Positions 735 through 49,427 of a stretch of DNA of 64,000 nucleotides are shown here, piece after piece. Made by a program: the position numbers and the translations under genes. The notes beneath the pieces are model-generated. The model saw only the letters and a list, made by a program, of their open reading frames with translations, was not told the origin of the DNA and did not search any database. The stretch's first letter is position 1. The number at the start of each line of letters is the position of its first letter. Origin of the DNA: a virus (lineage: Duplodnaviria > Caudoviricetes); IMG/VR virus record IMGVR_UViG_3300021399_000126, positions 1 through 64,000 of that record. One strand, 5' to 3'.

Positions 735-3608
735 CTATTCATTCTCACCATGAACCATCTTATTAACAAGTGATGTAGAACAGCCTAATCTATCGGCTAC
801 TTCTGCTTGTGTATAACCAGATGATAGCATAGCTTTAGCAAGCGCTATATTATTCTTATTAGTACTAATGTATTTAGTTGTGGTATTCTCTTTAGGTGTA
901 GCCATTTGCTTAAGTTCTGTTGAATCCATGTTAGAAATGATCTTCTGCATCATGGTTGAACCAATTGCTCCAGCTTGTATAGCTTCCCATTCTCTATCTG
1001 TTAAATGAACAAGTCTAGCTTTCTTAGAAGCACCAGTTAAAGCTCTTCCTTCTGCTAAAGCAGCATTCTCTATCTTTTTACGCCAATCTCTATCTTCTTT
1101 CTTAGCAGGGTTGTCTTTAAACTGAGCTTTAGTAATACTATTAGCAATTGCCTGAGCTCTTCTCTCTAAAGGTGCATTTAACATTGCTAATTTAACTTTG
1201 TCATTAAGAGAAGCTACTTCTTTAGCATATGTTTGAGCTGCAGAAGGTGATCTTTTTAAAGAAGGAATTTTAACAGACTCAAGTCTAGCTTGATTGGCCA
1301 TCTTCTTTAGCGTATTTGCATATTCGGCATATAGATTTTCTACTCTAGACCCAGTAGATAACTCATATGCATCTTTGGTCTCTGCCATCTGACTAGATTT
1401 GGTACGGTTGTATACTACTTTACCATTCTTATCTGTATAGTGTCTGCCTGTATACTGCCATTCTTTTTCACCTGTCTCTTTGTTTATTTTATACCAGGAT
1501 CTTTCAGGTACATCATACTCATTCTTAGCTCTAGATATCAGAGTAGATGCTCCATGTTTAGATGGATCATTAGGATTAACTTGATATGTTCTTTTTAATT
1601 CTGCAATATTATTATCCTTATAGCATTGTTTCCAGTCAAGTCCATGTTTCTCAGCATCAATAATCATCTGAGCACATTTAACAGCTCTAACAATATCTTC
1701 TGGAGGAGCACCTTTAATTCCCATATCTGTAAGAAGATTTGTACAAATACCCATTTGTCTCTGTTTCATAGTTGACGAAATTACTTTATCTGGATGTAAA
1801 GCTTTTTCTTCATCAGTCATTTTATAAAGCTCTTTTGGTTCGTAATTTCTTAATTCTGCAAATACACCTTCTTGTTTTGTTGTCTTAAAGTTTATTCCTT
1901 TTGTTGGTATAACTAAAACATTATCGCCATCAAAATCAGCTCCTGATAACTGGTGAGCAACATTAGCATTAATTCCAACAGCATCTATGGGTGATGTACC
2001 AAGCATCTTCTTTCCTTCTGCATTAGAGTTGTTTACTCTAAGAACTGGAATCTCAAATGTACCTTGGTGAGGATAACGTATACAAATTACTTCTTCTCCG
2101 TCTTTAAAATTAGTTGCATAGATCTCATTATCCTTTAAAGAAGTAACAGGAAGTATAGCACACGTTTTTTGCCTCGGTAATCCTGCTGCTTTAAGATCTA
2201 CTGCTGATGCATCACATTCTTCTGCAAAATCTATTAAAGCTTTCTTTCTAATTTCAGGATTTGTATACTGAGAAACTTCATCTAATTCTCTTTGTTTTTG
2301 AGCAATGCTTAATCTTAACTGATTTTCAACCAACTTAGTAGGTTGTTTAGCTAAGAACTGTGATGCTAGGTTAGTATTATTAGCCCAACCAGACCAAGTT
2401 CCTTCATCATTTACTTTATTTATAGCTGAAAGATGTTCATTACCATTTTTATCAGCGTACATTGATTGTCCACCAGCCATTATCGATGCACCAAAAGGAC
2501 GCTCCTTATCTACGCCGCCATCTTTAAAATAGTGTTTATTTTTATCTACTTTAGTATCAGCAGTTGATATGAACTTCTTATTTTCAAATTCATACCATCC
2601 TAAATCATTTGGATTCTCGTCACCTTTAGGATCCGCATCAACTTTAACACGTTCCATTTTCTTAAATGCTTTATTAGGACCATCAGCTCTACTTTTATTA
2701 GAGTTTAATATAATGTCATAGCCCTTAGGAACATTGTCAGAATATACAGCCATTCCTTTCAGGTATCTATCACCATCTACTGCTATTCTTACCTGTGAAT
2801 AGTTCGATTTTCCAAGATCAAGATCAGGAACACCTCTTCTTAATTCAATAACACCATCCTTATCAGCTCCACCATCTTCTGCATATTTAATAAATATTCT
2901 TGAAGAATCTATGGACTGAGGAAATTGTGTCTTTCTAAGTATTGGACCATCAGCACTATCATCAAAAGTAATATCTTTTAACGGTTTAACTTGTCCAACG
3001 TCTTTCATTAATTCTGGATATGTTGTATCTTTATCACCAAGTACCATAAAAGTAGTATTCTTTCCAGTACCAAGCTGCTTAACTTTAGGAGTAAATGTTT
3101 GATATCCTTCATCTTTAAGCATTTCCACAGCTGCATCCATTTTAGATCTTGCAACATTTAATCCTATTTCAGTCGATTCGCCAATATCAACAAATCTTTT
3201 CTTCTTTACTTCATCTTCAATTGCATCTTTAACAGCAAATATTACTTTATTTCGCTCTTCTGTCATAGGATCGAGCAAAGTTCTGACATAAGATTCACCC
3301 TTACCACCAAGCATCTTACCTATTGCTTCATTTGTATATCCGGCTTCTCTTTGTCTTTGAGCAAAAGAAATTTCGTCTCTTTTTCTTTGTGATCTTTCGA
3401 TCATGTTCCTTTTATTGAACATATCCATGGAAATACCCATGTCTTCGGCGATCTCTTTATTAGAAAATCCTTTCTTTCTCAACTCGTCTGCTCTGTCTAA
3501 GAACCAACTTTCATGTTGAAAAGGCTCATCTCCTGAACCCCAAGGATATCTACCAGATCTTCTAGGCATTCCATAATGTTGTAATTCGTCCATTCGAAAC
3601 TCGTCCAC
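735..3608 (-). CDS. Single-chain double-psi beta-barrel RNA polymerase (YonO / cellular RdRP-like) with N- and C-terminal HTH motifs
   Basis: RYPH...AVGIN...LSGADFDGDNVLV catalytic-loop signature; Q.IIDAEKHG segment; HTH-like segments GFSNKEIAEDMGIS, GYTNEAIGKMLG and GYTQAEVADRLGCSTSLV. Confidence 0.8.
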   Translation of the reverse strand: MDEFRMDELQHYGMPRRSGRYPWGSGDEPFQHESWFLDRADELRKKGFSNKEIAEDMGISMDMFNKRNMIERSQRKRDEISFAQRQREAGYTNEAIGKMLGGKGESYVRTLLDPMTEERNKVIFAVKDAIEDEVKKKRFVDIGESTEIGLNVARSKMDAAVEMLKDEGYQTFTPKVKQLGTGKNTTFMVLGDKDTTYPELMKDVGQVKPLKDITFDDSADGPILRKTQFPQSIDSSRIFIKYAEDGGADKDGVIELRRGVPDLDLGKSNYSQVRIAVDGDRYLKGMAVYSDNVPKGYDIILNSNKSRADGPNKAFKKMERVKVDADPKGDENPNDLGWYEFENKKFISTADTKVDKNKHYFKDGGVDKERPFGASIMAGGQSMYADKNGNEHLSAINKVNDEGTWSGWANNTNLASQFLAKQPTKLVENQLRLSIAQKQRELDEVSQYTNPEIRKKALIDFAEECDASAVDLKAAGLPRQKTCAILPVTSLKDNEIYATNFKDGEEVICIRYPHQGTFEIPVLRVNNSNAEGKKMLGTSPIDAVGINANVAHQLSGADFDGDNVLVIPTKGINFKTTKQEGVFAELRNYEPKELYKMTDEEKALHPDKVISSTMKQRQMGICTNLLTDMGIKGAPPEDIVRAVKCAQMIIDAEKHGLDWKQCYKDNNIAELKRTYQVNPNDPSKHGASTLISRAKNEYDVPERSWYKINKETGEKEWQYTGRHYTDKNGKVVYNRTKSSQMAETKDAYELSTGSRVENLYAEYANTLKKMANQARLESVKIPSLKRSPSAAQTYAKEVASLNDKVKLAMLNAPLERRAQAIANSITKAQFKDNPAKKEDRDWRKKIENAALAEGRALTGASKKARLVHLTDREWEAIQAGAIGSTMMQKIISNMDSTELKQMATPKENTTTKYISTNKNNIALAKAMLSSGYTQAEVADRLGCSTSLVNKMVHGENE

Positions 3609-3639
3609 GATCCATTCCTCCTCTTACTTCGCGCATCCT

Positions 3640-4191
3640 TTAGTCATTCTGTAAATCTTTTAAAATTTTTGAATACTTTCTAATTTTATCCATAATAGGC
3701 AGTATGATCTCTGCTGTAGGATTATCAATAAGTACTTCATTATTTTGATAAATCCTAGTTTCGATCTTTATATCACCTGGCTTTACAGAATATTCTAAAC
3801 AGAATAAAGCTGCATAAATATAGAGCTGTTCCATATGAGCTTTAATTTTGCCAGTTTTTAAATCGTGGATTCGTAATATATCATTCTTAAATCCTATAGC
3901 ATCTGTTGTACCATAACAAACATCAGAATAATATAATACAACTTCTGGATCTAGTCCAAATCCTATAGCATCGTTAATATGCATTTCAAGAGTATGACCA
4001 TTTGGTTTTTGCTTAATTCTATGTCTTATCGCCATAGCTGCATATTCATGAAGTTCTGTTCCTTCTTGAATAGCTTGAGCAGATTTCCATCTCTCAATTA
4101 CTTTCTTTTCATCATAATTTAACCAATGCCATTGACTAGCTCCTAGGAACGCATGTGATCCCTCAAGATTTGAGTGATTGTTCCATTTCAT
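3640..4191 (-). CDS. PD-(D/E)XK exonuclease (DUF2800 / Cas4-like)
   Basis: HAFLGAS, GTELHEYA, GTTDAI, IHDLKTG and QLYIYA motifs. Confidence 0.7.
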   Translation of the reverse strand: MKWNNHSNLEGSHAFLGASQWHWLNYDEKKVIERWKSAQAIQEGTELHEYAAMAIRHRIKQKPNGHTLEMHINDAIGFGLDPEVVLYYSDVCYGTTDAIGFKNDILRIHDLKTGKIKAHMEQLYIYAALFCLEYSVKPGDIKIETRIYQNNEVLIDNPTAEIILPIMDKIRKYSKILKDLQND

Positions 4192-4453
4192 CTAAGACTT
4201 CCTCCTTATTTTCAGGACTTATAAATCTTGCAAATGACATCTTATGCATTTTTTGAATATAATAATCCTGGTTCGGACGTTTAGATGCTTTTTTGTCTTT
4301 CTTACATTCAAGAGCAGCCCATCTTTTGCCTTTAAGTATTAATAAATCTGGTATACCTTGAATATAATTAGGATCATTTTTGAGCACTATACAATCCGGA
4401 CACCTGCATTTAATGTCATGAATAAGTTTGGATTGAAATTTGTTCTCGTTCAT
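4163..4453 (-). CDS. VRR-NUC domain nuclease / Holliday junction resolvase-like
   Basis: E..FQ, GIPDLLIL, ALECK and RPNQ motifs. Confidence 0.75.
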   Translation of the reverse strand: MNENKFQSKLIHDIKCRCPDCIVLKNDPNYIQGIPDLLILKGKRWAALECKKDKKASKRPNQDYYIQKMHKMSFARFISPENKEEVLDEMEQSLKS

Positions 4454-4534
4454 AATGCCTCCTAGACAAAAATGAAAAGAAAGCTTAAGTATTGCTCAAG
4501 ATAACAATCTCGAGTCTCTACTCTCTTCCTCTCC

Positions 4535-4559
4535 ATTATACAAGCAATAATTTTTGCGA
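4535..4559 (-). promoter_or_regulatory. Phage promoter motif driving the nuclease-RNAP operon
   Basis: TCGCA-N14-TATAAT. Confidence 0.7.
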
Positions 4560-4568
4560 TTTTATTTT

Positions 4569-5789
4569 TTAGTTTGAAAATGATGAATCCCTAAAAATTG
4601 TGGCTGCAAAATTCTTTTCATTAAAATCTTCTTTTAAATCAATACATCTTTTAATAGATTTGTCGATTGAACTATCACTTATTAATGAATAATAATATAA
4701 ATCAACATATAATGTGTTTAATCTATCAATTCGGCCACTTGCTTGTTCCATCATTCTATAGCTATAGTTCAAAGAATAGAATATCATACAATTTGTATCT
4801 ATACAATTCCAGCCTTCAGCACCTGATGCATATTGAACAAGATAAATCCATCTACCGGCTTTTGGTATTGATTGATGTTTGTGACCATTCCATTCAGCAT
4901 ATAAGTATTGTTTGTCTTCACAATATTTTCTTAATGCTTCCAACTCATAGTCAAAATTGTAAAATATAATTATTCTTGAACTATTTTCTAAAATTTTATC
5001 TATTGCTTCAAATCTACTAGGATCATTATTTACAACTTTTCTTATAGCTGACATTAATTGTGCAATATTTTCAAATGGCTCTTGAGTTTCATAATCTTTT
5101 CTCTCATCCATTATGTAGTCATATGAAACTTTATTATACTCAACGGGCACTGTAATATAATGTCTAACTGTATCTCTTTTAAATGGCATTTGAACAAGTA
5201 CCATGCTAAGAAAAGCTTTTAATCTACTAGTCTCGATATATCTATCAACTTTTGGAAACTTAGCAAATCTATTCCAAACTACATGTCTTCTCTCAAACTC
5301 TGTTTTATTCTTGTAAAATCCATTTGCTACAAATACCGGAATATAATCATGCCATTTATCCCCAGGAGTAGCACTTAGCAATATCCATAAGTTTTTCTTT
5401 GTAATTTTATAAAATGATTGTACCCATGCTCCATTGCCAACTACTCTTTGTTCATCGAATATAAAGAAAGCATTTTCAACATCTACATATTTTCCAATAT
5501 TGTTCCAAGAATCTATAGCTTTAGGTTTTATTAATAATGGAGCACACTCCTGTTCCCAATCGCAAGTGTCTCTTTTTCTAGCTGTTGTTATAATATATAA
5601 ATCAACAATATTAGTTGGTTTTTTATAACAAGGTTCATCATTACTATCATAAAGAGAGCCATTACAAATTTTACAAAAATAATATGCTAGAGCTGTAAGC
5701 GACTTCCCAGAACCGACTCCACCACATAAGATGGAGCCAGATCTGAGTTTTCTTATCGCTTCACGTTGATGAGAATATAATTTTATCAA
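4569..5789 (-). CDS. SF2 (SNF2-like) helicase
   Basis: Walker A GVGSGKS, Walker B FIFDEQ, SATPG, GAEGWN and QASGRIDR motifs. Confidence 0.85.
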   Translation of the reverse strand: MIKLYSHQREAIRKLRSGSILCGGVGSGKSLTALAYYFCKICNGSLYDSNDEPCYKKPTNIVDLYIITTARKRDTCDWEQECAPLLIKPKAIDSWNNIGKYVDVENAFFIFDEQRVVGNGAWVQSFYKITKKNLWILLSATPGDKWHDYIPVFVANGFYKNKTEFERRHVVWNRFAKFPKVDRYIETSRLKAFLSMVLVQMPFKRDTVRHYITVPVEYNKVSYDYIMDERKDYETQEPFENIAQLMSAIRKVVNNDPSRFEAIDKILENSSRIIIFYNFDYELEALRKYCEDKQYLYAEWNGHKHQSIPKAGRWIYLVQYASGAEGWNCIDTNCMIFYSLNYSYRMMEQASGRIDRLNTLYVDLYYYSLISDSSIDKSIKRCIDLKEDFNEKNFAATIFRDSSFSN

Positions 5790-6301
5790 TCAATATCTCC
5801 AGTTGCAATACCAATTGCAGAATCGGGAACATCTAAATATTTGCTAGCAAACCTATCTTCTGCTATTGTTACATACATTGATTTGAGATATCCTTTAATA
5901 CCTTTCTTTCCATTAACATCATAATGATAAGGTCTAATAACTAAATCAACTTTCTTAATTTCAGCCCAATCAAGAATATCGATTTCTTCCTCACCAAGTT
6001 TATTCTTTTTAACAGGTTTTCCATCAATTTCTGTAACAAGCCATACAATGGGTTTACTAAATCCATCATAATTAACTTTAACCTGCATATAAGGAACTTC
6101 CTCATCTTCAGGATCACGAGGTTTAAGTGTTCTTACATTCCAACCATCTTTAAGTAATCCATCAGCATCTTCAGGATTTAAAAGAACACAAAAGTTCCTA
6201 TTTCCCTTAGTATTAAATTTTCCTTCTTTTCCAGAAAAGTTCTTAAATCTAAGTTCTGCATTCTCAATTGCTATATCTTCATTCTGTATTTCACGTGCCA
6301 T
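5786..6301 (-). CDS. Putative single-stranded DNA-binding protein (phage OB-fold)
   Basis: Beta-rich sequence, G.KGYLKSMYV segment, acidic C-terminus; lies between replicase and helicase. Confidence 0.6.
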   Translation of the reverse strand: MAREIQNEDIAIENAELRFKNFSGKEGKFNTKGNRNFCVLLNPEDADGLLKDGWNVRTLKPRDPEDEEVPYMQVKVNYDGFSKPIVWLVTEIDGKPVKKNKLGEEEIDILDWAEIKKVDLVIRPYHYDVNGKKGIKGYLKSMYVTIAEDRFASKYLDVPDSAIGIATGDID

Positions 6302-10554: not shown

Positions 10555-10780
10555 TTAAAAATTTGTACGGGTTTTGTTTTTAACTTTATTATATTTATTA
10601 ACATTTTTCTTAATTAAATAAACACCACTGTACATGCCAAAACCCGTACAAAATAGCCATTTTTGGGCCATTTTTGCCCCTTTTTAGCCATTTTGTACAA
10701 AAATTTACAATATCTAAAAATTGCTAAAAATCAACTTTTTTGAAAAATGGCCAAAACCCGTACAAAACCCGTACAAGTTT
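10555..10780. repeat. Putative replication origin with iterons
   Basis: AAACCCGTACAA at about 10640, 10754 and 10765 plus an inverted copy at 10563; GCCATTTT x3 with an inverted AAAATGGC; TTTTGTACAAAA palindrome; AT-rich tract 10571-10620. Confidence 0.6.
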
Positions 10781-11920: not shown

Positions 11921-11945
11921 ATTACAGAGGCAATATAATATGCGA
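11921..11945 (-). promoter_or_regulatory. Phage promoter motif
   Basis: TCGCA-N14-TGTAAT followed by AGTAAAGGAGG. Confidence 0.7.
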
Positions 11946-13035: not shown

Positions 13036-13060
13036 ATTATAGAAGGGATAAAATGTGCGA
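13036..13060 (-). promoter_or_regulatory. Phage promoter motif
   Basis: TCGCA-N14-TATAAT followed by the hairpin AGAC-AATAGT-GTCT. Confidence 0.75.
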
Positions 13061-13363: not shown

Positions 13364-13388
13364 ATTATAGAAGGAATATAACTTGCGA
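13364..13388 (-). promoter_or_regulatory. Phage promoter motif
   Basis: TCGCA-N14-TATAAT plus the AGACAATAGTGTCT hairpin; 32 bp (13343-13374) identical to 13015-13046. Confidence 0.75.
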
Positions 13389-13994: not shown

Positions 13995-14019
13995 ATTATA
14001 GAAGGTATAATACATGCGA
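13995..14019 (-). promoter_or_regulatory. Phage promoter motif
   Basis: TCGCA-N14-TATAAT immediately followed by AAAGGAGG. Confidence 0.75.
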
Positions 14020-15026: not shown

Positions 15027-15051
15027 ATTAAAGGAGGAATAAATTATGCGA
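15027..15051 (-). promoter_or_regulatory. Phage promoter motif
   Basis: TCGCA-N14-TTTAAT. Confidence 0.7.
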
Positions 15052-18475: not shown

Positions 18476-18500
18476 ATTATAGGAGGAATATAATATGCGA
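18476..18500 (-). promoter_or_regulatory. Phage promoter motif
   Basis: TCGCA-N14-TATAAT. Confidence 0.75.
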
Positions 18501-18720: not shown

Positions 18721-18745
18721 ATTATAGAAGGAATATAATATGCGA
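18721..18745 (-). promoter_or_regulatory. Phage promoter motif (consensus copy)
   Basis: TCGCATATTATATTCCTTCTATAAT followed by AAAGGAGGTG. Confidence 0.8.
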
Positions 18746-19037: not shown

Positions 19038-19062
19038 ATTATAGAAGGATTAAAATATGCGA
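19038..19062 (-). promoter_or_regulatory. Phage promoter motif
   Basis: TCGCA-N14-TATAAT followed by the hairpin AGATATAC-GCGGT-GTATATCT. Confidence 0.75.
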
Positions 19063-19416: not shown

Positions 19417-19441
19417 ATTAAAGGAGCCTTATTTTTTGCGT
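19417..19441 (-). promoter_or_regulatory. Phage promoter motif with an abutting TTGTACGG box
   Basis: ACGCA-N14-TTTAAT. Confidence 0.65.
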
Positions 19442-19546
19442 CCGTACAAGTTCATACAATCTCTTTAAAATTTTATAAACTCCTTAATTAATATATGCGA
19501 AAAGAAGAAAGGAGCCATATTTCAGACTCCCTTCACATTCATAATC

Positions 19547-19671: not shown

Positions 19672-19696
19672 ATTATAGGAGGCATATTTCTTGCGT
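19672..19696 (-). promoter_or_regulatory. Phage promoter motif with an abutting TTGTACGG box
   Basis: ACGCA-N14-TATAAT plus the GACAATAATGTC hairpin. Confidence 0.7.
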
Positions 19697-21094: not shown

Positions 21095-21700
21095 TGTCGT
21101 TCTCCTTTTCTTCATTGTTATCTTTATTTAATGCAGATATAATTACATTTCCAACAGTAGCTGCTATGCTGGTGAGGCTTAGCATAAATATAAACGGATG
21201 TCTGCATGCGAAATCCCATATATTTGTTTTACTCATTTTTTTTTTTTTCACTCCTATAAAGTAAATTGTCGTAAGACAGCCTTTTACTCCTTTCAAGAGA
21301 CTTTATCCTATCAAAAGAAAGAGAGGGTTCCTAAAAATATAAGAACCCTCAGTGAAAGGATAAAAATGGATTATATAATCAGGCAGTTTTAAGCTTGCTC
21401 CTCTCAGACACAAGCTTTTCCCGCCAATGATTAGCAAAATATGAATTTGATCCACGAGTTTTAGATCTAGACTTGTTTTGACCATGCTTGTTGATCTGTC
21501 TAAATCCTTCAAGCTGCATGCGATTTCTCGCGAGAGCTCTTTTATATGATCTTAATATGCTCATATATTATCTCCTTTAAATATAATTGTAAGCCTCATC
21601 CCTAGCTTACTCGGCCTAACCCACTTCTTCCTTACCATAGTTACTAGGCTTCCTTATATTTTATAACATGGGCTCGAAGTGGCTTCTCCAAGGGTCCATA

Positions 21701-22828: not shown

Positions 22829-22853
22829 ATTAAAGACGCAATAAATTGTGCGA
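22829..22853 (-). promoter_or_regulatory. Phage promoter motif followed directly by a long hairpin and U-tract
   Basis: TCGCA-N14-TTTAAT. Confidence 0.7.
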
Positions 22854-23823: not shown

Positions 23824-23848
23824 ACTATAGAAGTAAAAATTTTTGCGA
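23824..23848 (-). promoter_or_regulatory. Phage promoter motif
   Basis: TCGCA-N14-TATAGT plus a 5' hairpin. Confidence 0.65.
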
Positions 23849-25730: not shown

Positions 25731-25755
25731 ATTAAAGAAGGATTAAATTATGCGA
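25731..25755 (-). promoter_or_regulatory. Phage promoter motif overlapping the 3' end of the PurA-like gene
   Basis: TCGCA-N14-TTTAAT. Confidence 0.7.
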
Positions 25756-26847
25756 ATTAACACAATCCCTTGTTGGACCATTACTAATGTAATTATAAGA
25801 AAAATTTTCATCTGGTTTAATTTCGTCAGCATGTGTTAAAGCTATAGTTGTTTTAACTTTATAAGGTGATGAATCAATTTTTATTCGTTCGTACAACGCT
25901 TCATAGTTTATATTAGCATACCGAAGATTTCCTTGAAATGGATTATAAACATTTGTTTTATCAACAAATCCAAAATCTATTTCATCATCAAGTTTACCAT
26001 CACCATGTCTAGTGAGATAGGTTCTAGAAACATAGCAAGCTTCTATATCCAAATCTTTTCTATCACCAATAATATCAAAAACAGCTTTCAATCCAGTATT
26101 ACTAGATGTTCCATATTCAGGATCATAATCTTTATCTAATAATAAACCTTGAGCGTTTTCAAATATAATGGTATCATAGTGATCAAACAAATAATCTTGG
26201 TCACAAACCGGAGTACAAATATGTTGCATAGACCTAAAATCTTGTATAAAATTATTTATAAGATTATCAGAATAATAAGCGTTTTTCCAATTTCCAGATA
26301 AATGTATATTATTTTCTTCCATCTTCTGTTTATAATATACATCTCTAATATCCAATAAATCTTTTTCTATTTCATTATCTGTCATGCATGCATATCTTAT
26401 AAAGTTTGCACCATTTCGTCTTTTTGTTTCATAAACACCATATCCACAACTATTATTAAGGCCTTGCTCAGTCATGAAAAGTATGTTATAAATCATATCA
26501 AATGGTGTACTAACCAAACAATTATTATTTATCCGTGGTCTTGGAGTAAATCTAGTATCCTTGTTTAATAGTTTATACTCCTCTACAAATATAAGAGGAT
26601 TGGAAACAAATTGAGCTGGAATATAAGTATCCGCACCAGCAAATGTTCCACTTCCAAAATGATGAAAAATATGTCTTAAATTATTAACCTGTACAGTATG
26701 ACCTCTTTGTGATCCACCATTCGTTAAAACATTTAGGCACTTGGCATTTTTATCAGCTTCAAGAGCCTGATGACAAAAATAATCTGTCATCAAGCCCTTT
26801 CCCTCGTCTCCGTAGTTTGCTCCTATAACAGCTTTGACTACTACCAT
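25732..26847 (-). CDS. Adenylosuccinate synthetase-like protein (divergent PurA family)
   Basis: GANYGDEGKG, NGGSQRGHTV, FENAQGLLLD, RTYLTRHGDG, DKTN and GNLRY motifs. Confidence 0.85.
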   Translation of the reverse strand: MVVVKAVIGANYGDEGKGLMTDYFCHQALEADKNAKCLNVLTNGGSQRGHTVQVNNLRHIFHHFGSGTFAGADTYIPAQFVSNPLIFVEEYKLLNKDTRFTPRPRINNNCLVSTPFDMIYNILFMTEQGLNNSCGYGVYETKRRNGANFIRYACMTDNEIEKDLLDIRDVYYKQKMEENNIHLSGNWKNAYYSDNLINNFIQDFRSMQHICTPVCDQDYLFDHYDTIIFENAQGLLLDKDYDPEYGTSSNTGLKAVFDIIGDRKDLDIEACYVSRTYLTRHGDGKLDDEIDFGFVDKTNVYNPFQGNLRYANINYEALYERIKIDSSPYKVKTTIALTHADEIKPDENFSYNYISNGPTRDCVNSHNLILL

Positions 26848-28336: not shown

Positions 28337-28903
28337 TTATTTCCTTCTAGCTCTGTAGTAAGAAGGTCTTCTATAAGTATACTCATCATCTTCGTCAATT
28401 GTGCCATTCTTAAATTCAGCTTCTAACTTATACTGCTTGAATATAAGTTTCGCGTGCTGAACAGGAGTAATATTCTTATGAACATATGATGAAAGTCGAT
28501 TAATACTCATCTGAAACTCAACGTCTAATGCTCTCTTGAATCCTTCCTGATAAGATATGATATCAGTATTATTATTGGCATATTTACCAAGTTCATAAAA
28601 ACAAATTGGCTGATCAGATTTTTCAGTATTAGTAAAATACATTGTGAATATATCAGATGAACGAATATAATCTGCTTCCCAATTAATCTGTCTTCTGATT
28701 TCTTCTGTATCAGAATTCTTAGGCCACTTATCACGACGAGGATTAAATATAACAAGTTTATCAGTCTTTTCCTCAGGTAAAGACTTTAAGTAGTCAATTA
28801 CCTCCTGCTGCCAATCATCACAATCGGTTATACCACCAGCAAGAAACACGGTAATCTCTTCTCTAGTAGGAACATAGTATTCTGGTGCAGTAATTACTTT
28901 CAT
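28337..28903 (-). CDS. Nucleoside 2-deoxyribosyltransferase-like protein
   Basis: VFLAGGI..C.DWQ, FNPRR, QINWE and PI.FYELG motifs. Confidence 0.75.
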   Translation of the reverse strand: MKVITAPEYYVPTREEITVFLAGGITDCDDWQQEVIDYLKSLPEEKTDKLVIFNPRRDKWPKNSDTEEIRRQINWEADYIRSSDIFTMYFTNTEKSDQPICFYELGKYANNNTDIISYQEGFKRALDVEFQMSINRLSSYVHKNITPVQHAKLIFKQYKLEAEFKNGTIDEDDEYTYRRPSYYRARRK

Positions 28904-36009: not shown

Positions 36010-36577
36010 TTCTTATTCCTCACTATCAAAACAAAACCTTTACTTCTTCTCTATTATTTTTATTTAGAAAAACAATAGTTTTACCTGATATCAATTTGCA
36101 ATAGTTATTAGCTGCTTCAGTTAAAGTTTTTCCTCTCCCAACTACACCTTTAAAACAGTAAACATCGTCAATCCAGCCATCCTTATATCCAACACAAATA
36201 TTGTCATCAATGTCCTTAGATACTTCCAAAGGATGATTATCAAGGCTTAATAATTTATTAAATGTGTCATATATTTCATTGTTGACATCTTGTCTGTTAT
36301 AACCTCTAAAAGCATTTAATGCTCTTTCATATAAATCGTTTCCTTTTTCATCTGAAATACTTTTCTGATTTGTATATTTGTCGAATATATCGCATATCTC
36401 TGTAGCAATGTCTAAATCATCAATATATTCTAAAATCTCATCTCTTATCTTGCCAAGTACTTCAATCATTTCTTTTGAAGATACTGTATTATCTGCCATT
36501 ATTTATTCCTCTCTTTCTGTGGTGCTATATCGGCAACACCACTTTCCGCCGCTGATTTTCCCTCAGCAGTAAAAGAA

Positions 36578-36661
36578 TGCTGGCAACGAGACTCGAACTC
36601 GTACGATCTTACGATCATTGGATTTTAAGTCCAAGGCGTCTACCTATTCCGCCATGCCAGC
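36578..36661 (-). tRNA. tRNA-Leu(TAA)
   Basis: GCTGGCA/TGCCAGC acceptor stem; TTGGA-CT-TAA-AA-TCCAA anticodon arm; long variable arm; ACGAG-TTCGAGT-CTCGT T arm; no encoded CCA. Confidence 0.92.
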
Positions 36662-36761
36662 ATGAATAGAGCTCACTAGAAAGGAGGTTGTGAATATAAT
36701 TATGTGAGACTCTATTCTAAAAATGTGAGGTAAAAATGGAAATTAGGCTCTTACAAGCCAA

Positions 36762-36880
36762 TGGTGTGGGTAGGGAATCGAACCCTACATGATGGTATCA
36801 AATACTGATTAGCTACTTCAGTCTTCATCGTGATTATACTTGATATAACCACTGCGTTTATCCACTTCCGCCACCACACC
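36762..36880 (-). tRNA. Aberrant 119-nt tRNA-Leu(CAA)-like RNA
   Basis: GGTGTGG/CCACACC-A acceptor; Leu-type D arm; 8-bp anticodon stem with loop ATCAAGT; about 40-nt variable region; 6-bp T stem with TTCGATT loop. Confidence 0.65.
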
Positions 36881-36925
36881 ACTCAACATTACGGAGGACC
36901 GTGTCCATTATGCAAAACACGGACA

Positions 36926-36997
36926 CAGGGCTAGTCGGATTCGAACCGACGCATCCAGCAGTCAAAGTGCTGTGTCTTTCCGCTTGGCTATAGCCCT
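36926..36997 (-). tRNA. tRNA-Gln(TTG)
   Basis: AGGGCTA/TAGCCCT acceptor; CAGCA-CT-TTG-AC-TGCTG anticodon arm; GTCGG-TTCGAAT-CCGAC T arm. Confidence 0.92.
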
Positions 36998-37033
36998 AAA
37001 AAGATTAGAGGAACCTTAATAGATTCCTCTAAT
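36998..37033 (-). terminator. Cassette-end hairpin directly abutting the tRNA-Gln 5' end
   Basis: AGAGGAAUC-UAUUAA-GGUUCCUCU followed by AAUCUUU. Confidence 0.6.
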
Positions 37034-37301: not shown

Positions 37302-37326
37302 ATTATATAAGTAATATTTTTTGCGA
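37302..37326 (-). promoter_or_regulatory. Phage promoter motif
   Basis: TCGCA-N14-TATAAT. Confidence 0.7.
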
Positions 37327-41176: not shown

Positions 41177-41201
41177 ATTATAGAAGGATTAAAATGTGCG
41201 A
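41177..41201 (-). promoter_or_regulatory. Phage promoter motif
   Basis: TCGCA-N14-TATAAT. Confidence 0.75.
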
Positions 41202-44203: not shown

Positions 44204-44228
44204 ATAATAGAAGGCTTAATATTTGCGA
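44204..44228 (-). promoter_or_regulatory. Phage promoter motif
   Basis: TCGCA-N14-TATTAT immediately followed by AGGAGGTG. Confidence 0.7.
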
Positions 44229-44786: not shown

Positions 44787-45590
44787 CTATGTAAATAATG
44801 GACAAGATATAATATTTCCCTTACTATCTCTTTTAGAACCTTTAGGATCGTTCCTAAAATCACTTTTCATTAGATAACATTTATTATAACTTGTCTTGCA
44901 GGTTGCACATAATGATACAAAAGTTTCTTTTTTCTTAGTTCTTGGCGCAGAATATAATTTTGTTACAGATTCACTCCTTTCTTTTTTAATAATTTCTAGA
45001 TGCTTTTGCCACTTTTTCTCACATTCTTCTGAACATCTAGAAATTTCATTAGGAATTTTACCTATTGGATAAATTTTGATTTGTTTCTTGTTACATACTG
45101 GACAAAATTCTATTCTTTGAACTTCTGTAGCTTTTGGTTTTGGCTTGATTTTTGGAATGCTATAAGTTTTATGCATATATACTTGTCGACATTCAGGTGA
45201 ACAAAATTGAGTTTGCCATCTGTCCGGATCTACTCCTTTTGCACCATTTATTGGCTTTAAACACTGCCTACAAAGCATATGTTTAGCTGACCACTTTTTT
45301 CTACATTCTACTGAACAAAAGAAATGAATATTATCAGGATCGTCGGATAAACCTTTTCCCATAATTACTAAATCTGGTGGTATCTTAAATGCTTTATTAC
45401 AGTTTGAACAAATGTAATCCTGTAACTTTGGTTGATAATAAATTCTTTTATTTCTATTTATTTCTTTAGCCATTTTGACCTTTAATCGATCAGAATTTGG
45501 TGAACATTCTGGACAATATTTCCTATTTGATCGATTTGCATCAAATGATTTACCGCATATCTCACATTCTTTTATCATAACGAACGACAC
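44787..45590 (-). CDS. Multi-CxxC zinc-binding protein (TRASH/MYM-like repeats)
   Basis: Repeated C..C and FCS..C motifs. Confidence 0.65.
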   Translation of the reverse strand: MSFVMIKECEICGKSFDANRSNRKYCPECSPNSDRLKVKMAKEINRNKRIYYQPKLQDYICSNCNKAFKIPPDLVIMGKGLSDDPDNIHFFCSVECRKKWSAKHMLCRQCLKPINGAKGVDPDRWQTQFCSPECRQVYMHKTYSIPKIKPKPKATEVQRIEFCPVCNKKQIKIYPIGKIPNEISRCSEECEKKWQKHLEIIKKERSESVTKLYSAPRTKKKETFVSLCATCKTSYNKCYLMKSDFRNDPKGSKRDSKGNIISCPLFT

Positions 45591-45872
45591 CTCTTACAAT
45601 GCTTCTTTATTCTCTCTAAATTTGCATTTATATGATTTAAAAGAGATTGTGTTTCTGGTGAATATAATTTGTCCAATTCTTCCTGTATTTCTTCCACCTG
45701 ATCATTTATATATCTGAAATTATAATCCAGAAATATAGCTTTTTCAGATTCATTTCTTAATTCTCTATCACCTTTAACGATTAATGCCAATTTGTCAAGT
45801 GGTACATTCATTGCCCAATCCATAGCTTGATCAAAAGAACAACCCGTCTTTTTTTCATAAATGTCAGCTGCT

Positions 45873-46358
45873 TCAATAGCCAGTTCTTTTATTTTTCCCA
45901 TTTTTACACCTTTCTTCATGATTATTTTCCCATCCGACGATATCTGTTTCATCAGTTTCCATAAGTAAATTATACTTTTTCCATATATCATATAATTTTG
46001 GCATCTGAATAGCTATCCAATCTACTAGTGGCTCATTTGAAGACCATGATGTTGGATCTAGATGAGATTGATTGCCTAATCCACATTCATATATAAAAGC
46101 ATGTGTTACCTCATGTCTCAAAGTATGTTTATAACGTTCATACCTTGTGTCAGGATATCTAGAGGCATATTTAAATTCATTTTGATCAGTAAGATCAGCT
46201 ATAATAATATTTTTAATATAAAAATCAGTATAACCGTTGCATGGGTGATCTGATAAAATGAAATCATCGGAAACCTTTTTTATTTTTACAGTATAATCAA
46301 TTCCTAAAATGTTTATTTTTTTAGGAACTTCGAATTCTTTTTCTTTAATTTTTCCCAT
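45873..46358 (-). CDS. HExxH metallopeptidase-like protein
   Basis: TLRHEVTHAFIYECGL...NE..VDWIAIQ.PK. Confidence 0.65.
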   Translation of the reverse strand: MGKIKEKEFEVPKKINILGIDYTVKIKKVSDDFILSDHPCNGYTDFYIKNIIIADLTDQNEFKYASRYPDTRYERYKHTLRHEVTHAFIYECGLGNQSHLDPTSWSSNEPLVDWIAIQMPKLYDIWKKYNLLMETDETDIVGWENNHEERCKNGKNKRTGY

Positions 46359-46517
46359 ATTTTCTCACCATTTTGACCTTTCATTTTTAAATTTAAAAGA
46401 CTTAGAGGAACCATATTCGATTCCTCTACGCCTAACAACTACAAGAAAGGAGGATGCGGAATGATAAAATATACCATTTTTGATATACTTTACCACTCTC
46501 ATCCATCTTTCCACATC

Positions 46518-46542
46518 ATAATAGGAGGAATATTTTTTGCGA
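46518..46542 (-). promoter_or_regulatory. Phage promoter motif
   Basis: TCGCA-N14-TATTAT. Confidence 0.65.
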
Positions 46543-46600
46543 AAGATAAAGAAAAATATGAAGGAAGCCATAAGACTTCCTTGTTTTTAATGAAAGTTAT

Positions 46601-46699
46601 TTAACTCTCACGTTTTGACTCGATATACTCGAGTGCCTTTTCACGGCTCTCGAATATAATACCATCAACAACGTATACTTCTCTCTCATTATTTTCCAT
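46601..46699 (-). CDS. 32-aa cassette peptide (not in ORF track)
   Basis: MENNEREVYVVDGIIFESREKALEYIESKRES; GGAGG RBS. Confidence 0.65.
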   Translation of the reverse strand: MENNEREVYVVDGIIFESREKALEYIESKRES

Positions 46700-46752
46700 T
46701 TTTTTATCCTCCATTTTCCTTCATATTACTGATAAGACACTATTATCTTATC

Positions 46753-46777
46753 ATTATAGGGGTAATAAATTTTGCGA
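46753..46777 (-). promoter_or_regulatory. Phage promoter motif
   Basis: TCGCA-N14-TATAAT plus the GATAAGAT-AATAGT-GTCTTATC hairpin. Confidence 0.75.
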
Positions 46778-46852
46778 AAGATAAAAGACTTAGAGAGACC
46801 ATAATTGATCTCTCTATTGTCTGTTACCCATAACCAATTCCTAACAAAGGAA

Positions 46853-47212
46853 TTAAGGCTTTCTGCACTGATTTGAAGGCGAGAACTTTGATCGTCCCAT
46901 TTCGATCTGAATCTCGTCGTCAGGATTCTGAGATCTGCGATATTGCACATTGTAATTTATCACTGGAACTATAACACCCCCGACAGCTGCCAATCCAGCT
47001 AAAACTGCTGCCCAGATCTTAGCTCTACTTTCAACTTTCGAGCTTTCAATCTTAGCAATAGCTTCATACTTTTGTGCCATCTGGATGCGAAGTTCCTTCT
47101 TTCGTTCTGGTGTGCAGTTTTCGCGCCACATTTCCTCTTCGTCCATTGCGACAAGATCCAATAAATCATCGGACATTGTTTTCTTCTTCTTAAACCAATC
47201 TTTTATTGCCAT
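46853..47212 (-). CDS. Cassette single-TM protein
   Basis: 119 aa; IWAAVLAGLAAVGGVIVPVI segment. Confidence 0.7.
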   Translation of the reverse strand: MAIKDWFKKKKTMSDDLLDLVAMDEEEMWRENCTPERKKELRIQMAQKYEAIAKIESSKVESRAKIWAAVLAGLAAVGGVIVPVINYNVQYRRSQNPDDEIQIEMGRSKFSPSNQCRKP

Positions 47213-47248
47213 TTTATTCTCCTTTCTAAAACGGTTAATAAGTTACCT

Positions 47249-47273
47249 ATTATATAAGCCATAATTTTAGCGA
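47249..47273 (-). promoter_or_regulatory. Phage promoter motif (variant)
   Basis: TCGCT-N14-TATAAT. Confidence 0.65.
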
Positions 47274-47326
47274 AAAGCCTAAAGAGGCCATAATGACCCC
47301 TTTTAGGTTTTATTGGGTTTCTTTTA

Positions 47327-47704
47327 TCACCACTCCCAAATTAAGGTGAACAGATCACAATATTTAACTACCAAATTTTGTAACGCACAATATATAACTG
47401 ATGGTTCACAATCTTCATTAGTATTTTCTGCTATATCGGCTGCTAAATCCTCCATAAAAGCTACTAAAGTATCGTCAGTTTCATTTGCAACTCTTTTTGC
47501 TAAATCATAGCATGTATCTCCATCCCTATAAAAACGATTCAATTCTTTCTCTCTACGTTTTTTAGTAATGCAGAGTAATACTATTTGTGCAGGAAGAGTT
47601 ATAAGATTCACTGCAATAACTAGTGGCCAGTACAAAATACCTGCCAATATAGTTAATACTACATTTCTAAGAATCATTCCAACATTGTACATAAAGTTTT
47701 TCAT
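47327..47704 (-). CDS. Cassette membrane protein
   Basis: Start MKNFMY after AAGGAGG. Confidence 0.7.
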   Translation of the reverse strand: MKNFMYNVGMILRNVVLTILAGILYWPLVIAVNLITLPAQIVLLCITKKRREKELNRFYRDGDTCYDLAKRVANETDDTLVAFMEDLAADIAENTNEDCEPSVIYCALQNLVVKYCDLFTLIWEW

Positions 47705-47746
47705 GTTACATTTCCTCCTTAATGTTAAACACAGCACTATTACTGT

Positions 47747-47771
47747 ATTATAGAAGGAATAAATTGTGCGA
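47747..47771 (-). promoter_or_regulatory. Phage promoter motif
   Basis: TCGCA-N14-TATAAT plus the ACAGT-AATAGT-GCTGT hairpin. Confidence 0.75.
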
Positions 47772-47816
47772 AAAGATTAGAGAGACCATAATTGATCTCT
47801 CTACATTCTAAATTTT

Positions 47817-47918
47817 TTAAATCGAAGATAATAGCCACATGCCTACTATAAATGCGACTATCGTTAGTAATCCTACTATATCTCGGATCACCTTCAATAT
47901 TTGTCTAATTGTAAACAT
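47817..47918 (-). CDS. 33-aa hydrophobic cassette peptide (not in ORF track)
   Basis: MFTIRQILKVIRDIVGLLTIVAFIVGMWLLSSI; AAGGAGG RBS. Confidence 0.65.
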   Translation of the reverse strand: MFTIRQILKVIRDIVGLLTIVAFIVGMWLLSSI

Positions 47919-47946
47919 ATTCTTTTTACCTCCTTATAATTAATCT

Positions 47947-47971
47947 ATTATAGAAGGAATATAATATGCGA
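47947..47971 (-). promoter_or_regulatory. Phage promoter motif (consensus copy)
   Basis: TCGCATATTATATTCCTTCTATAAT. Confidence 0.8.
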
Positions 47972-48015
47972 AAAACTCAAAGAGGCCATAATGACCTCTT
48001 CAAGTCTCTCCATAT

Positions 48016-48228
48016 TTAATTGTTCTTATTATTATAATGTAAAGTCATGCATCGAACATTATTCATATTATAAGCCACCCTCTGATGATCTAAATCATTC
48101 ACAAAAATGAAGCCATTATTAATTTCAATTACCCCTTTACCTTCAAGATATTTGAAACTTACATTTCCTTCACCTACGATGTGAATTTCACCTTCTCCAT
48201 CAAAGAAACTAATAAATAATTCTGTCAT
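48016..48228 (-). CDS. Small cassette gene
   Basis: 70-aa ORF. Confidence 0.7.
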   Translation of the reverse strand: MTELFISFFDGEGEIHIVGEGNVSFKYLEGKGVIEINNGFIFVNDLDHQRVAYNMNNVRCMTLHYNNKNN

Positions 48229-48268
48229 AGTACAGTCCTCCTTTATAATATAAGCGACACTATTGTCT

Positions 48269-48293
48269 ATTATAGAAGGAATAATTTTTGCGT
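48269..48293 (-). promoter_or_regulatory. Phage promoter motif
   Basis: ACGCA-N14-TATAAT plus the AGACAATAGTGTC hairpin. Confidence 0.75.
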
Positions 48294-48331
48294 GAAAAAA
48301 TTATAGAAGGGATGAAAACATTAGTTAATAG

Positions 48332-48481
48332 TTACTTTTGTAAACTAACTTGTTTTCTTGCTACATCAAGAGCTACTCGTTCAGCTCTCTTATTACCTTT
48401 AGTTCCTCGTCTAACGAGAATCTGCTGTGCTAAGATTTGAGCCTGACGCTCAAGATTTTCATCTTCAAGTCTTTTACTCAT
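48332..48481 (-). CDS. 49-aa basic cassette peptide
   Basis: Start reassigned to MSKRLEDE after GAGGT. Confidence 0.6.
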   Translation of the reverse strand: MSKRLEDENLERQAQILAQQILVRRGTKGNKRAERVALDVARKQVSLQK

Positions 48482-48509
48482 AATTACCTCACTTTCTATC
48501 CCTTCTATC

Positions 48510-48534
48510 ATTATACAAACAATAAATCTTGCGT
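48510..48534 (-). promoter_or_regulatory. Phage promoter motif with an abutting TTGTACGG box
   Basis: ACGCA-N14-TATAAT. Confidence 0.65.
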
Positions 48535-48611
48535 CCGTACAAGTTTTTATCCATTTTGAAAAAATTAAAGAAACCATAAAAAGAAGAGGAGCAATATGCT
48601 CCCCGACTTTA

Positions 48612-48932
48612 TTAGTCCTTGTAGTATAATATGTTATACGCTAATATATCGCCTGTATTGTTTGTAACTATTTGAAATTCAAATTCATTACAATCATATA
48701 CAAGACCATACATTTCTGTACCATCCTCATACTCAACTCCTATAAAGTCGATATTCTGCTCTTCTTCTTTATCGAGATACATTTCATAATTGAGTATCTC
48801 GGTATAATCCATTTCTTCATATTTAGTAACATATGCATCATCAACATTGTATACTTCAGTATCTTCTACCAAAGTCATCCCAACGAATGACATAAACATC
48901 TTTATTACCATTGTTAAAATAAATTTTACCAT
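48612..48932 (-). CDS. Acidic cassette protein
   Basis: 106 aa, very Glu/Asp/Tyr-rich. Confidence 0.65.
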   Translation of the reverse strand: MVKFILTMVIKMFMSFVGMTLVEDTEVYNVDDAYVTKYEEMDYTEILNYEMYLDKEEEQNIDFIGVEYEDGTEMYGLVYDCNEFEFQIVTNNTGDILAYNILYYKD

Positions 48933-48977
48933 AATTTTATCCTCTTTTCTATAAAATGTCGACAGCCAATTCTGTCT

Positions 48978-49002
48978 ATTAAAGAGGTAATAAATTTTGC
49001 GT
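48978..49002 (-). promoter_or_regulatory. Phage promoter motif
   Basis: ACGCA-N14-TTTAAT plus the GACAG-AATTGG-CTGTC hairpin. Confidence 0.7.
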
Positions 49003-49053
49003 ATTTTGAAAAAATTAAAGAAGCCTTATTTTCTAAAGCTTCTTAATTTTTTA

Positions 49054-49176
49054 TTATACAATACCGAAATTAAGAACTCGGTATCCTTTTGCTTTACACC
49101 AATCAAGACCTTCCTGAACAGTTTCGAATACTGCCCAACGGATCTCGTTGTCTACTAAAAAGAATACTCTTCTCAT
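49054..49176 (-). CDS. 40-aa cassette peptide (not in ORF track)
   Basis: MRRVFFLVDNEIRWAVFETVQEGLDWCKAKGYRVLNFGIV. Confidence 0.65.
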   Translation of the reverse strand: MRRVFFLVDNEIRWAVFETVQEGLDWCKAKGYRVLNFGIV

Positions 49177-49195
49177 AACTTCGTACCTCCTTTCT

Positions 49196-49220
49196 ATAAA
49201 AGAGGTATTAAATTTTGCGA
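49196..49220 (-). promoter_or_regulatory. Phage promoter motif (variant)
   Basis: TCGCA-N14-TTTTAT followed by AGAAAGGAGG. Confidence 0.6.
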
Positions 49221-49263
49221 AAAATTAAAGAGGCCATATTTTTAAAAAAGAGAAAGAGGCCTT

Positions 49264-49386
49264 TTAAGCCTCGTCCTCTAATTCTTCAATTAAAAAGCAT
49301 TCAATTCTAAATGCACAAGAGTCACAATCATCACATGGGTGACCTTCTGCTTCACATATCTTGTACATTTCTATTAATTCATCCAT
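49264..49386 (-). CDS. 40-aa Cys-rich acidic cassette peptide (not in ORF track)
   Basis: MDELIEMYKICEAEGHPCDDCDSCAFRIECFLIEELEDEA. Confidence 0.65.
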   Translation of the reverse strand: MDELIEMYKICEAEGHPCDDCDSCAFRIECFLIEELEDEA

Positions 49387-49402
49387 TTTTTATCACCTCC
49401 TT

Positions 49403-49427
49403 ATTACAGAAGGAATATAATCTGCGA
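49403..49427 (-). promoter_or_regulatory. First phage promoter motif of the early region
   Basis: TCGCA-N14-TGTAAT immediately followed by AAGGAGGTG. Confidence 0.7.

Follow-up and report, generated by a model that had tools for sequence, protein, structure and literature searches.

The 64,000-nucleotide (nt) stretch analysed here (the window; positions 1 to 64,000 of IMG/VR virus record IMGVR_UViG_3300021399_000126) carries on its minus strand a recurrent element, WCGCA-N14-TATAAT, and near its start a gene for a 957-amino-acid protein with a DFDGD motif. The question raised by this locus is which RNA polymerase reads the element, the enzyme of the host or the protein encoded by the phage itself. 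The full virus record, of which the window makes up the first 64 kb, is 97,886 bp long and was rated as complete by CheckV. Transcription in all cells is carried out by two-barrel RNA polymerases and, to our knowledge, all well-studied cellular two-barrel polymerases need separate initiation factors. The results obtained indicate that 27 copies of the element are probably promoters of the phage's own transcription system, served by the 957-amino-acid protein as a two-barrel polymerase.

A scan of the window for WCGCA-N14-TATAAT with at most one mismatch gave 32 matches, against 4.9 ± 2.5 (maximum 12) in 100 dinucleotide shuffles, and no shuffle (0/100) reached 32. A preliminary description, made from the letters of the DNA, had listed 27 minus-strand copies with a gap of 14 nt between the boxes. 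The one-mismatch scan recovered 26 of these 27, and the last, at 49196 (hexamer TTTTAT, two mismatches), was recovered by a relaxed pattern only. On the minus strand the relaxed pattern gave 29 matches, namely the 27 sites and weaker look-alikes at 21187 and 36833, while the 2 matches on the plus strand were both judged to be chance. All 27 listed coordinates proved to be real, co-oriented and separated by exactly 14 nt. No minus-strand copy was found by the relaxed pattern between 49.5 and 97.9 kb, which is the structural half of the genome and has few intergenic gaps, so the absence of the element from the late region, also claimed before, held.

Alignment of the 27 copies showed one continuous conserved block of 25 nt, not two boxes with a free spacer. 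With the hexamer numbered -6 to -1, C-24, G-23, C-22, T-15, T-6, T-4 and T-1 were invariant (27/27), A-14 and C-10 were near-invariant (26/27 each) and C-7 was present in 23 of the 27 copies. A purine followed the hexamer at +1 in all copies, as had been described, and at +2 in 26 copies. The conserved upstream box was TCGCA (-25 to -21), placed 14 bp from the hexamer; the hexamer consensus was TATAAT, that is, a hexamer of the -10 type, and there was no conserved -35 box. The bases ahead of the hexamer were CTTC, and TG just upstream of it was found at 4535 and 48510 only.

The copies sit in intergenic gaps on the coding strand, ahead of genes, and many are directly preceded by a strong hairpin with a T-run that resembles a terminator. 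A Shine-Dalgarno sequence (SD) of the AGGAGG type begins 0 to 4 nt past the hexamer at seven sites (49403, 49196, 44204, 25731, 18721, 13995 and 11921), which agrees with the immediate SDs noted in the preliminary description, and the start codon at these sites lies 12 to 20 nt past the hexamer. Several of the seven genes are also shielded by terminators from upstream read-through. A hairpin starting at +1 to +3 was found at 11 of the 27 sites, compared with 15% of random positions (binomial p = 0.0012). The sequences of these hairpins vary between copies, and they therefore fit a structure at the 5' end of an RNA better than a protein binding site.

This placement bears on whether the repeats are promoters at all. 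They could instead be a duplicated terminator cassette or another strand-specific signal, such as one used in packaging, replication or recombination, and the genome does contain other strand-specific repeated words (ATTATATT and TTGTACGGAYG). However, the copies lie right behind terminator hairpins and right before an SD and a start codon, they are not found in gene interiors or structural operons, and the same placement is kept in relatives across phyla. A function of this kind is thus very improbable.

A more serious rival concerns the polymerase. T4 middle promoters pair an upstream box with a retained -10 box, and transcription by sigma-70/sigma-A polymerase starts about 6-8 nt downstream of the -10 box. 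Host sigma-A polymerase might accordingly use TATAAT as the -10 box, with a phage protein at TCGCA replacing the -35 contact in a T4 MotA/AsiA-like manner and with a start about 7 nt past the hexamer; the activator could be the helix-turn-helix (HTH) modules of the 957-amino-acid protein. The hexamer is a perfect -10 consensus, the TG at 4535 and 48510 lies one base upstream of it, and in the genome announcement of the cluster DJ Gordonia phage Vardy this motif was interpreted as a sigma-70 -10 promoter (PMC9671010). A start at +7, however, would leave the SD truncated or missing at 7 of the 27 sites, because the SDs there begin 0 to 4 nt past the hexamer, and it would do so in Lactococcus phage 1706 as well; the 5' hairpins that begin at +1 would likewise be cut. 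The invariant positions between the boxes are unlike sigma-type spacers, the hexamer variant follows the lineage of the phage and not its host, the +1 and +2 purines stand directly past the hexamer, and a DFDGD two-barrel polymerase would be left without a role. The misfit to sigma-A geometry that had been pointed out earlier was borne out by the lack of a -35 box and of a TG extension in the consensus, by the conserved spacer and by the SD close behind the hexamer in seven copies, and reading by the host enzyme with a MotA-like activator is considered unlikely.

Searches for host-type transcription signals gave a similar picture. Sigma-70 region 2 was not found in the genome by a search that detected its positive controls. 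Matches to TTGACA-N16-18-TATAAT were equally common on the non-coding and the coding strand, and nearly all of those on the coding strand were inside genes. The few intergenic sigma-A-type matches fell in the gaps of the promoter cassettes, and at 48298/48296 the supposed -10 box was the motif's own hexamer. Among the canonical matches in the genome, none was a sigma-A-type promoter at the head of a separate gene block. A search for the T7-type polymerase family (PF00940) detected nothing in the genome, and nothing in the control genomes either. The TATATT within the spacer (-17 to -12) was also considered as the true sigma-A -10 box, which would place the start inside TATAAT, and was rejected, as relatives show TTACAC or TTTACA there.

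The protein with the DFDGD motif has the length of 957 amino acids given in the preliminary description and contains GADFDGD at residues 556-562. Its domain map showed N-terminal HTH repeats (~35-135), a barrel core (~230-790) and a C-terminal HTH (923-956). The Pfam family RdRP (PF05183) matched residues 549-675 with 30.5 bits, above the cut-off of 23.8, and HTH_23 and HTH_3 matched above cut-off at 923-956. At the N-terminus, a GerE-like match at 46-61 fell just under the cut-off and a profile search showed a repeated HTH pattern at 32-135, so the protein has HTH modules of its own at both ends, as had been claimed. The match to PHROG 4291, the 1706 family, ran end to end (E = 0, residues 5-954), and the database search gave at least 7998 homologous proteins at E < 1e-5. 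Identity was 33% to orf75 of phage 1706 (full length, E 3e-151) and 40-43% to actinophage proteins. In an alignment of 30 homologues, G556, A557, D558, D560 and D562 were strictly invariant, F559 and G561 were present in ≥90%, and the R-x-P-H motif (511-514) and other core residues were likewise invariant. The three HTH modules at the protein ends are kept across the whole 1706 family.

A profile search of the protein against PDB sequences returned HTH matches only, and a fold search was therefore needed to see the barrels. The AlphaFold2 model, built on the 30-homologue alignment, had a mean predicted local distance difference test score of 78. Foldseek against the PDB ranked QDE-1 first (E 6.5e-8), followed by plant RDR2, the phage P74 gp62 and P32 gp64 RNA polymerases, P23-45 gp96 and cellular largest subunits. 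An independent fold aligner gave Z 12.8 for QDE-1 (root-mean-square deviation 4.1, 373 residues aligned, model residues 230-789), 12.0 for RDR2, 11.5 for Pol I A190, 11.0 for P74 gp62 and 9.1 for gp96, with RNA polymerase largest subunits at Z 10-11.5. Residues 479-570, which bear the DFDGD, matched isolated double-psi beta-barrels at Z ~10. The model thus predicts a two-barrel RNA polymerase fold with DFDGD inside a double-psi beta-barrel, and the protein is presumed to be catalytically active. The lack of such a barrel, which the preliminary description had named as grounds for rejecting its proposal, was therefore not observed. An insertion of 40 residues (~320-365; window 2520-2650), which relatives lack, was modelled with very low confidence and is faintly similar to open reading frame (ORF) stretches at 54.2 kb and 68.6-69.7 kb.

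The 1706 family was recognised by sequence in 2010 as YonO-like proteins (PMC2919709, Ruprich-Robert and Thuriaux). In 2021, an HTH-flanked "putative RNA polymerase" was described for a group of actinophages and Lactococcus and Faecalibacterium phages, in which conserved genes occupy two genomic regions and the polymerase is called a signature genetic element (bioRxiv 10.1101/842583). Neither PMC2919709 nor bioRxiv 10.1101/842583 ties the family to a promoter. The usual database labels of the family are "helix-turn-helix DNA-binding protein" or "RNA-dependent RNA polymerase". Literature searches found no bench work on any member of the 1706 family, and no paper linking its polymerase to a TCGCA-N14-TATAAT promoter or testing either.

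The gene order at the right end of the genome, in which a single-strand annealing protein, a helicase and an exonuclease precede the polymerase (Table 1), is the same in Lactococcus phages 1706 and P118 and in many Arthrobacter, Gordonia, Streptomyces, Rhodococcus and Microbacterium phages, where the polymerase homologue is the last or next-to-last gene. The element, again co-oriented, was present in each of the 10 actinophages with the polymerase gene that were scanned. TCGCA-N14-TRTART-R with one mismatch allowed gave 17 forward and 1 reverse matches in ReqiPepy6 (Rhodococcus), 7 and 1 in Duffington (Gordonia), 6 and 0 in Scap1 (Streptomyces) and 4 and 0 in Mudcat (Arthrobacter, TCGCG variant). 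YCGCR-N14-TRTART-R without mismatch gave 5 forward matches in Rainydai (Streptomyces), 5 in DizzyRudy (Microbacterium), 22 in Qui (Arthrobacter), 11 in DrGrey (Streptomyces) and 10 in Breylor17 (Arthrobacter), with 0 reverse matches in all five; controls with backward patterns gave 0-2 for both patterns. By the second pattern, sk1, phiC31, ReqiPine5 and GTE2, which have similar hosts and no polymerase gene, contained 0 forward and 0 reverse matches each.

The full actinophage element is TCGCA-N14-TATAAT, then GAGACCCCTAYGAAAGGA, 5-8 nt and ATG. Phage 1706 contained about 12 copies of YCRCA-N14-TATAGT-AGAAAGAAGG, with a relaxed upstream box and an SD close behind the hexamer too, and P118 has kept the downstream part (TTTTACATACCC-TATAAT-G) with TTTTA standing in for TCGCA. 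The actinophages, 1706 and P118 have in common T-15, A-14, C-7, the hexamer and the next purine, and in all of them the copies cluster immediately downstream of the structural module; whether the hexamer is TATAGT or TATAAT depends on the phage lineage, not the host. Close relatives were sought in IMG/VR by peptide patterns, by which none was confirmed, and a DNA pattern was then used to reach relatives. Promoters of this type are also present in the closest uncultured low-G+C relatives (G018 and G028), where one copy precedes the polymerase gene by ~0.9 kb, like the copy at 4535 here. When IMG/VR was scanned for a 14-base core of the motif and 49 motif-holding records were tested for the polymerase gene, 26 of the 49 had it. 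Among records at least 90% complete the proportion was 13 of 16, and the other 3 had a single, chance-level match each. All five multi-match records without the gene were fragments (47-69% complete), in which its loss is expected because the gene sits at the very end of the genome.

The same signal thus occurs in phages of two bacterial phyla that share the polymerase, and it is therefore most likely the polymerase's own promoter. The earlier interpretation of a cognate phage polymerase with promoters of its own is supported by the fold, the genomic context and this cross-phylum co-occurrence. The word "private" used for the system does not hold, as the element is not confined to this phage and marks a very large phage group. 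We infer that transcription starts at the purine adjoining the hexamer, that no other factor is required and that the enzyme is catalytically active.

The phage polymerase could also transcribe from these sites while a separate small specificity factor of phage or host reads TCGCA or the hexamer, the HTH modules then serving tethering or packaging. In keeping with this, well-studied cellular two-barrel polymerases all need initiation factors, more than 100 genes of this genome are without assigned function, and P118 alters the upstream box and keeps the polymerase. For YonO of Bacillus prophage SPbeta the need for a factor was left open (PMC5467207). Against it, the three terminal HTH modules are conserved family-wide, no sigma-like protein was detected in the genome, and the preprint counts the polymerase as a signature element of the phage group (10.1101/842583). 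A separate factor therefore appears improbable, to about the same degree as reading by the host enzyme.

If the phage polymerase reads the 27 sites by itself, its fused HTH modules (a sigma-4-like one at the C-terminus and two or more at the N-terminus) would recognise the upstream part of a 25-bp duplex promoter, that is, TCGCA at -25 to -21 together with T-15 and A-14. The AT-rich TATAAT at -6 to -1 would be melted, and the RNA would begin at the conserved purine immediately past it. Each promoter would head a short early or middle cassette, often with a terminator upstream, whose leader would carry either a protective 5' hairpin or an immediate SD. The copy at 4535 would drive an operon that ends in the polymerase gene itself. 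As this operon is under its own promoter and no host-type promoter is evident, the enzyme would be needed from elsewhere at first, and the first molecules are probably carried in by the virion, as happens in N4, in crAss-like phages and in P23-45. In the GenBank record as first deposited for phage 1706, the homologue orf75 is labelled "structural protein", which suggests virion delivery. Two further leads on delivery were dropped: orf86 of Lactococcus phage P087, considered as a second "structural" homologue, is unrelated, and the N-terminal HYG...PWGSG, considered as a shared virion-cargo tag, is carried in this genome by the polymerase only.

Several points weigh against this reading of the locus. 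The support for virion delivery is one database annotation, and the predicted +1 derives from the placement of the SDs and hairpins only. No RNA run was found to contain this phage, and two metatranscriptome runs of the probable source gut sample, the only sample whose DNA contained the phage in full, had next to none of the phage's words. Taken by itself, the hexamer does not tell a phage polymerase from that of the host, since TATAAT equally matches the sigma-A -10 box perfectly and TANNNT suits actinobacterial sigma factors. The SD in actinophages lies 11 nt past the hexamer and is compatible with either start site. P118 has the polymerase but TTTTA for TCGCA, and the upstream box is therefore not universal. 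YonO, the only bench-tested relative at the family level, is without a defined promoter, and its need for a factor stands as noted above (PMC5467207).

The fullest form of the proposal is that one polypeptide, with a two-barrel core and three HTH modules, is delivered in the virion and reads a 25-bp duplex promoter unaided, and that this promoter (YCGCR-N14-TATART-purine) has been kept essentially unchanged in phages of Actinobacteria and of Firmicutes; this is advanced tentatively. If true, the enzyme would be the first two-barrel RNA polymerase known to have a defined promoter and to use it specifically without other factors, and it would offer a ready orthogonal polymerase-promoter expression system for Gram-positive hosts of both high and low G+C content. 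If confirmed, the finding would mean revised annotations for hundreds of deposited phage genomes and would account for the early-gene expression of these phages. The 1706 family may also show how a minimal two-barrel polymerase finds promoters by itself. The present analysis yields a precise promoter consensus and a predicted start site, both open to testing in phages that are in culture, among them 1706, ReqiPepy6 and many SEA-PHAGES isolates.

Comparison with known systems showed the closest likeness to the 1706 family, which shares full-length homology, GADFDGD, HTH modules at both ends and the right-end gene position; the ~40-residue insertion is the feature that sets this phage's copy apart. 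Thermus phage P23-45 has two two-barrel polymerases, gp96 (in the virion, fused to the tape measure) and gp64 (P74 gp62; non-virion), with promoter motifs of their own (PMC10770324). These are also single-chain enzymes of siphoviruses, and their early-gene motifs co-occur with the polymerase gene across relatives (PMC10770324). They have no detectable sequence similarity to the protein studied here, no fused HTHs in the matches seen and other promoter sequences, and P23-45 uses two enzymes whereas one candidate was found in this phage. YonO is a proven DNA-dependent RNA polymerase with an undefined promoter, and the only Firmicutes-phage relative of this broad class for which that activity was demonstrated (PMC5467207). 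It is likewise a single-chain DxDGD polymerase of ~100 kDa, distantly related to multisubunit RNA polymerases and QDE-1. YonO belongs to a sequence family different from the 1706 family and serves a single long late operon with one start site, in contrast to the 27 short early and middle cassettes with a sharp promoter found here.

In layout, the promoters resemble those of T7, T3 and SP6, which also have a continuous block of ~23-25 bp that is AT-rich to -1, a purine start, co-oriented copies and terminator-bounded units, but the enzymes of those phages have a right-hand fold and not the two-barrel fold predicted here. N4 gp50 and crAss gp66 are alike in the proposal of a particle-carried enzyme for early genes, which here is drawn from the 1706 orf75 annotation only, and crAss gp66 is likewise two-barrel. 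N4 differs in its hairpin promoters and T7-like fold, and both the N4 and the crAss enzymes are far larger. In T4 MotA middle promoters the box lies 12 ± 1 bp from the -10 box, whereas here the distance is exactly 14 bp and the placement of the SD speaks against a +7 start. The coordinates of the features are shown in Table 1.

Table 1. Probable promoter copies, right-end genes and repeated words of the phage, in window coordinates
Feature	Position	Strand	Details
Promoter copy	49403..49427	-	hexamer TGTAAT; SD from 1st nt past hexamer; ATG at +17
Promoter copy	49196..49220	-	TTTTAT, weakest hexamer; SD 3 nt past hexamer
Promoter copy	48978..49002	-	ACGCA type; hairpin at predicted transcript 5' end; terminator hairpin upstream
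Promoter copy	48510..48534	-	ACGCA type; TTGTACGG adjoins upstream; TG ahead of hexamer
Promoter copy	48269..48293	-	ACGCA type; then AGACAATAGTGTC hairpin
Promoter copy	47947..47971	-	exact consensus; strong terminator hairpin (-20.6 kcal/mol) adjoins upstream
Promoter copy	47747..47771	-	5' hairpin from +1; terminator upstream
Promoter copy	47249..47273	-	TCGCT variant; terminator upstream
Promoter copy	46753..46777	-	5' hairpin of 9 bp from +1; terminator upstream
Promoter copy	46518..46542	-	hexamer TATTAT
Promoter copy	44204..44228	-	hexamer TATTAT; AGGAGG from 1st nt past hexamer; ATG at +15
Promoter copy	41177..41201	-	motif match
Promoter copy	37302..37326	-	ahead of small ORF and two tRNA genes
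Promoter copy	25731..25755	-	TTTAAT; overlaps 3' end of adenylosuccinate-synthetase-like ORF (25732-26847); SD 3 nt past hexamer
Promoter copy	23824..23848	-	hexamer TATAGT; 5' hairpin of 10 bp
Promoter copy	22829..22853	-	hexamer TTTAAT
Promoter copy	19672..19696	-	ACGCA type; AACTTGTACGG adjoins; 5' hairpin from +1
Promoter copy	19417..19441	-	ACGCA type; AACTTGTACGG adjoins; 5' hairpin
Promoter copy	19038..19062	-	5' hairpin of 8 bp from +1; terminator upstream
Promoter copy	18721..18745	-	exact consensus; AAAGGAGG right past hexamer; ATG at +16; terminator adjoins upstream
Promoter copy	18476..18500	-	terminator upstream
Promoter copy	15027..15051	-	hexamer TTTAAT; 5' hairpin
Promoter copy	13995..14019	-	AAAGGAGG right past hexamer; ATG at +17
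Promoter copy	13364..13388	-	AGACAATAGTGTCT hairpin from +1
Promoter copy	13036..13060	-	AGACAATAGTGTCT hairpin from +1; terminator upstream
Promoter copy	11921..11945	-	hexamer TGTAAT; SD 4 nt past hexamer
Promoter copy	4535..4559	-	heads exonuclease-RNA polymerase operon; TG ahead of hexamer
Single-strand annealing protein	5786-6301	-	genome right-end block
Helicase	4569-5789	-	genome right-end block
Exonuclease	3640-4191	-	genome right-end block, before polymerase gene
Predicted single-chain two-barrel RNA polymerase (1706 family, PHROG 4291)	735..3608	-	957 amino acids; GTG start; last gene before genome end
TTGTACGGAYG-type words	10651-10776, 11343, 19449, 19704, 23995, 33126, 38179, 42876, 48542, 53499	-	

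Other strand-specific words were also found in the genome. The 8-mer ATTATATT had 79 copies on the coding strand and 5 on the other strand over the whole genome, with 70 copies within 2.5-57 kb compared with 7-11 expected (Markov order 1-3). Copies are found in each of the three frames as well as in gaps; 13 of them immediately precede an SD, 15-45 nt upstream of the start codon. A comparable word, [CGT]ATATT[CT] (BATATTY), had ~130 forward and 0 reverse copies in ReqiPepy6 (36-77 kb), ~90 and 1 in Duffington and 24 and 0 in Scap1; strand-biased repeats of this word were not found in Mudcat or Rainydai. Some intergenic copies stand right before an SD in ReqiPepy6 (73519) and Duffington (50842 and 51509), one of them just in front of the ReqiPepy6 polymerase gene, in the same motif-then-SD arrangement as the main promoters. 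The ATTATATT word might act as a second class of promoter, as a pause signal or as a site of priming or nicking, and it and BATATTY might represent a second signal for the same polymerase.

Words of the TTGTACGGAYG type had 12 copies on the coding strand and 1 on the other strand. The spacing between neighbours was mostly 4.3-5.7 kb; two intervals were longer, at ~8.4 and ~9.1 kb. Three clustered copies of TTGTACGGGTTTTG lie just upstream of the primase/polymerase gene, and the words at 19449, 19704 and 48542 adjoin promoters of the ACGCA type. This type of word may be an origin or a regulator site.

The minus strand encodes all 149 genes called in the whole 97,886-bp genome. Taken in their transcriptional order, the structural and lysis half (97.9 kb to ~50 kb) comes first, followed by small early genes and replication genes (49.4 to 4.5 kb). 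Megablast of the genome right end against cultured phages gave one 42-bp match only. Both record ends (window 1-405; genome 97820-97886) share an 18-nt overlap (CTTCGAAAAGTCTCCGGG), which shows that the record was assembled as a circle. The sequence with G/C runs beside this overlap resembles the cos end of Streptomyces phage Scap1, which would place the polymerase gene ~0.7 kb from the likely physical right end.

The adenylosuccinate-synthetase-like ORF at 25732-26847 (minus strand) is divergent (PF00709, E 1e-22, far under the PurA equivalog cut-offs) and falls in PHROG 1211, which is named after PurZ-type enzymes. Its identity as PurZ was not established, the best solved relatives being ordinary PurA, and given these PurA-like relatives a modified-purine genome is only a possibility. 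A nucleoside 2-deoxyribosyltransferase-like protein is encoded nearby at 28337-28903 (minus strand). In the structural and lysis half, a 1705-amino-acid ORF (58563-63680, minus strand) and a 634-amino-acid ORF (50552-52456, minus strand) were without a PHROG match, and the ORF at 56585-58426 (minus strand) encodes a multi-domain endolysin. Behind the promoter copy at 37302, the minus strand encodes tRNA-Leu(UAA) at 36577-36662 and tRNA-Gln(UUG) at 36925-36998, and the weak look-alike of the motif at 36833 lies between these two genes.

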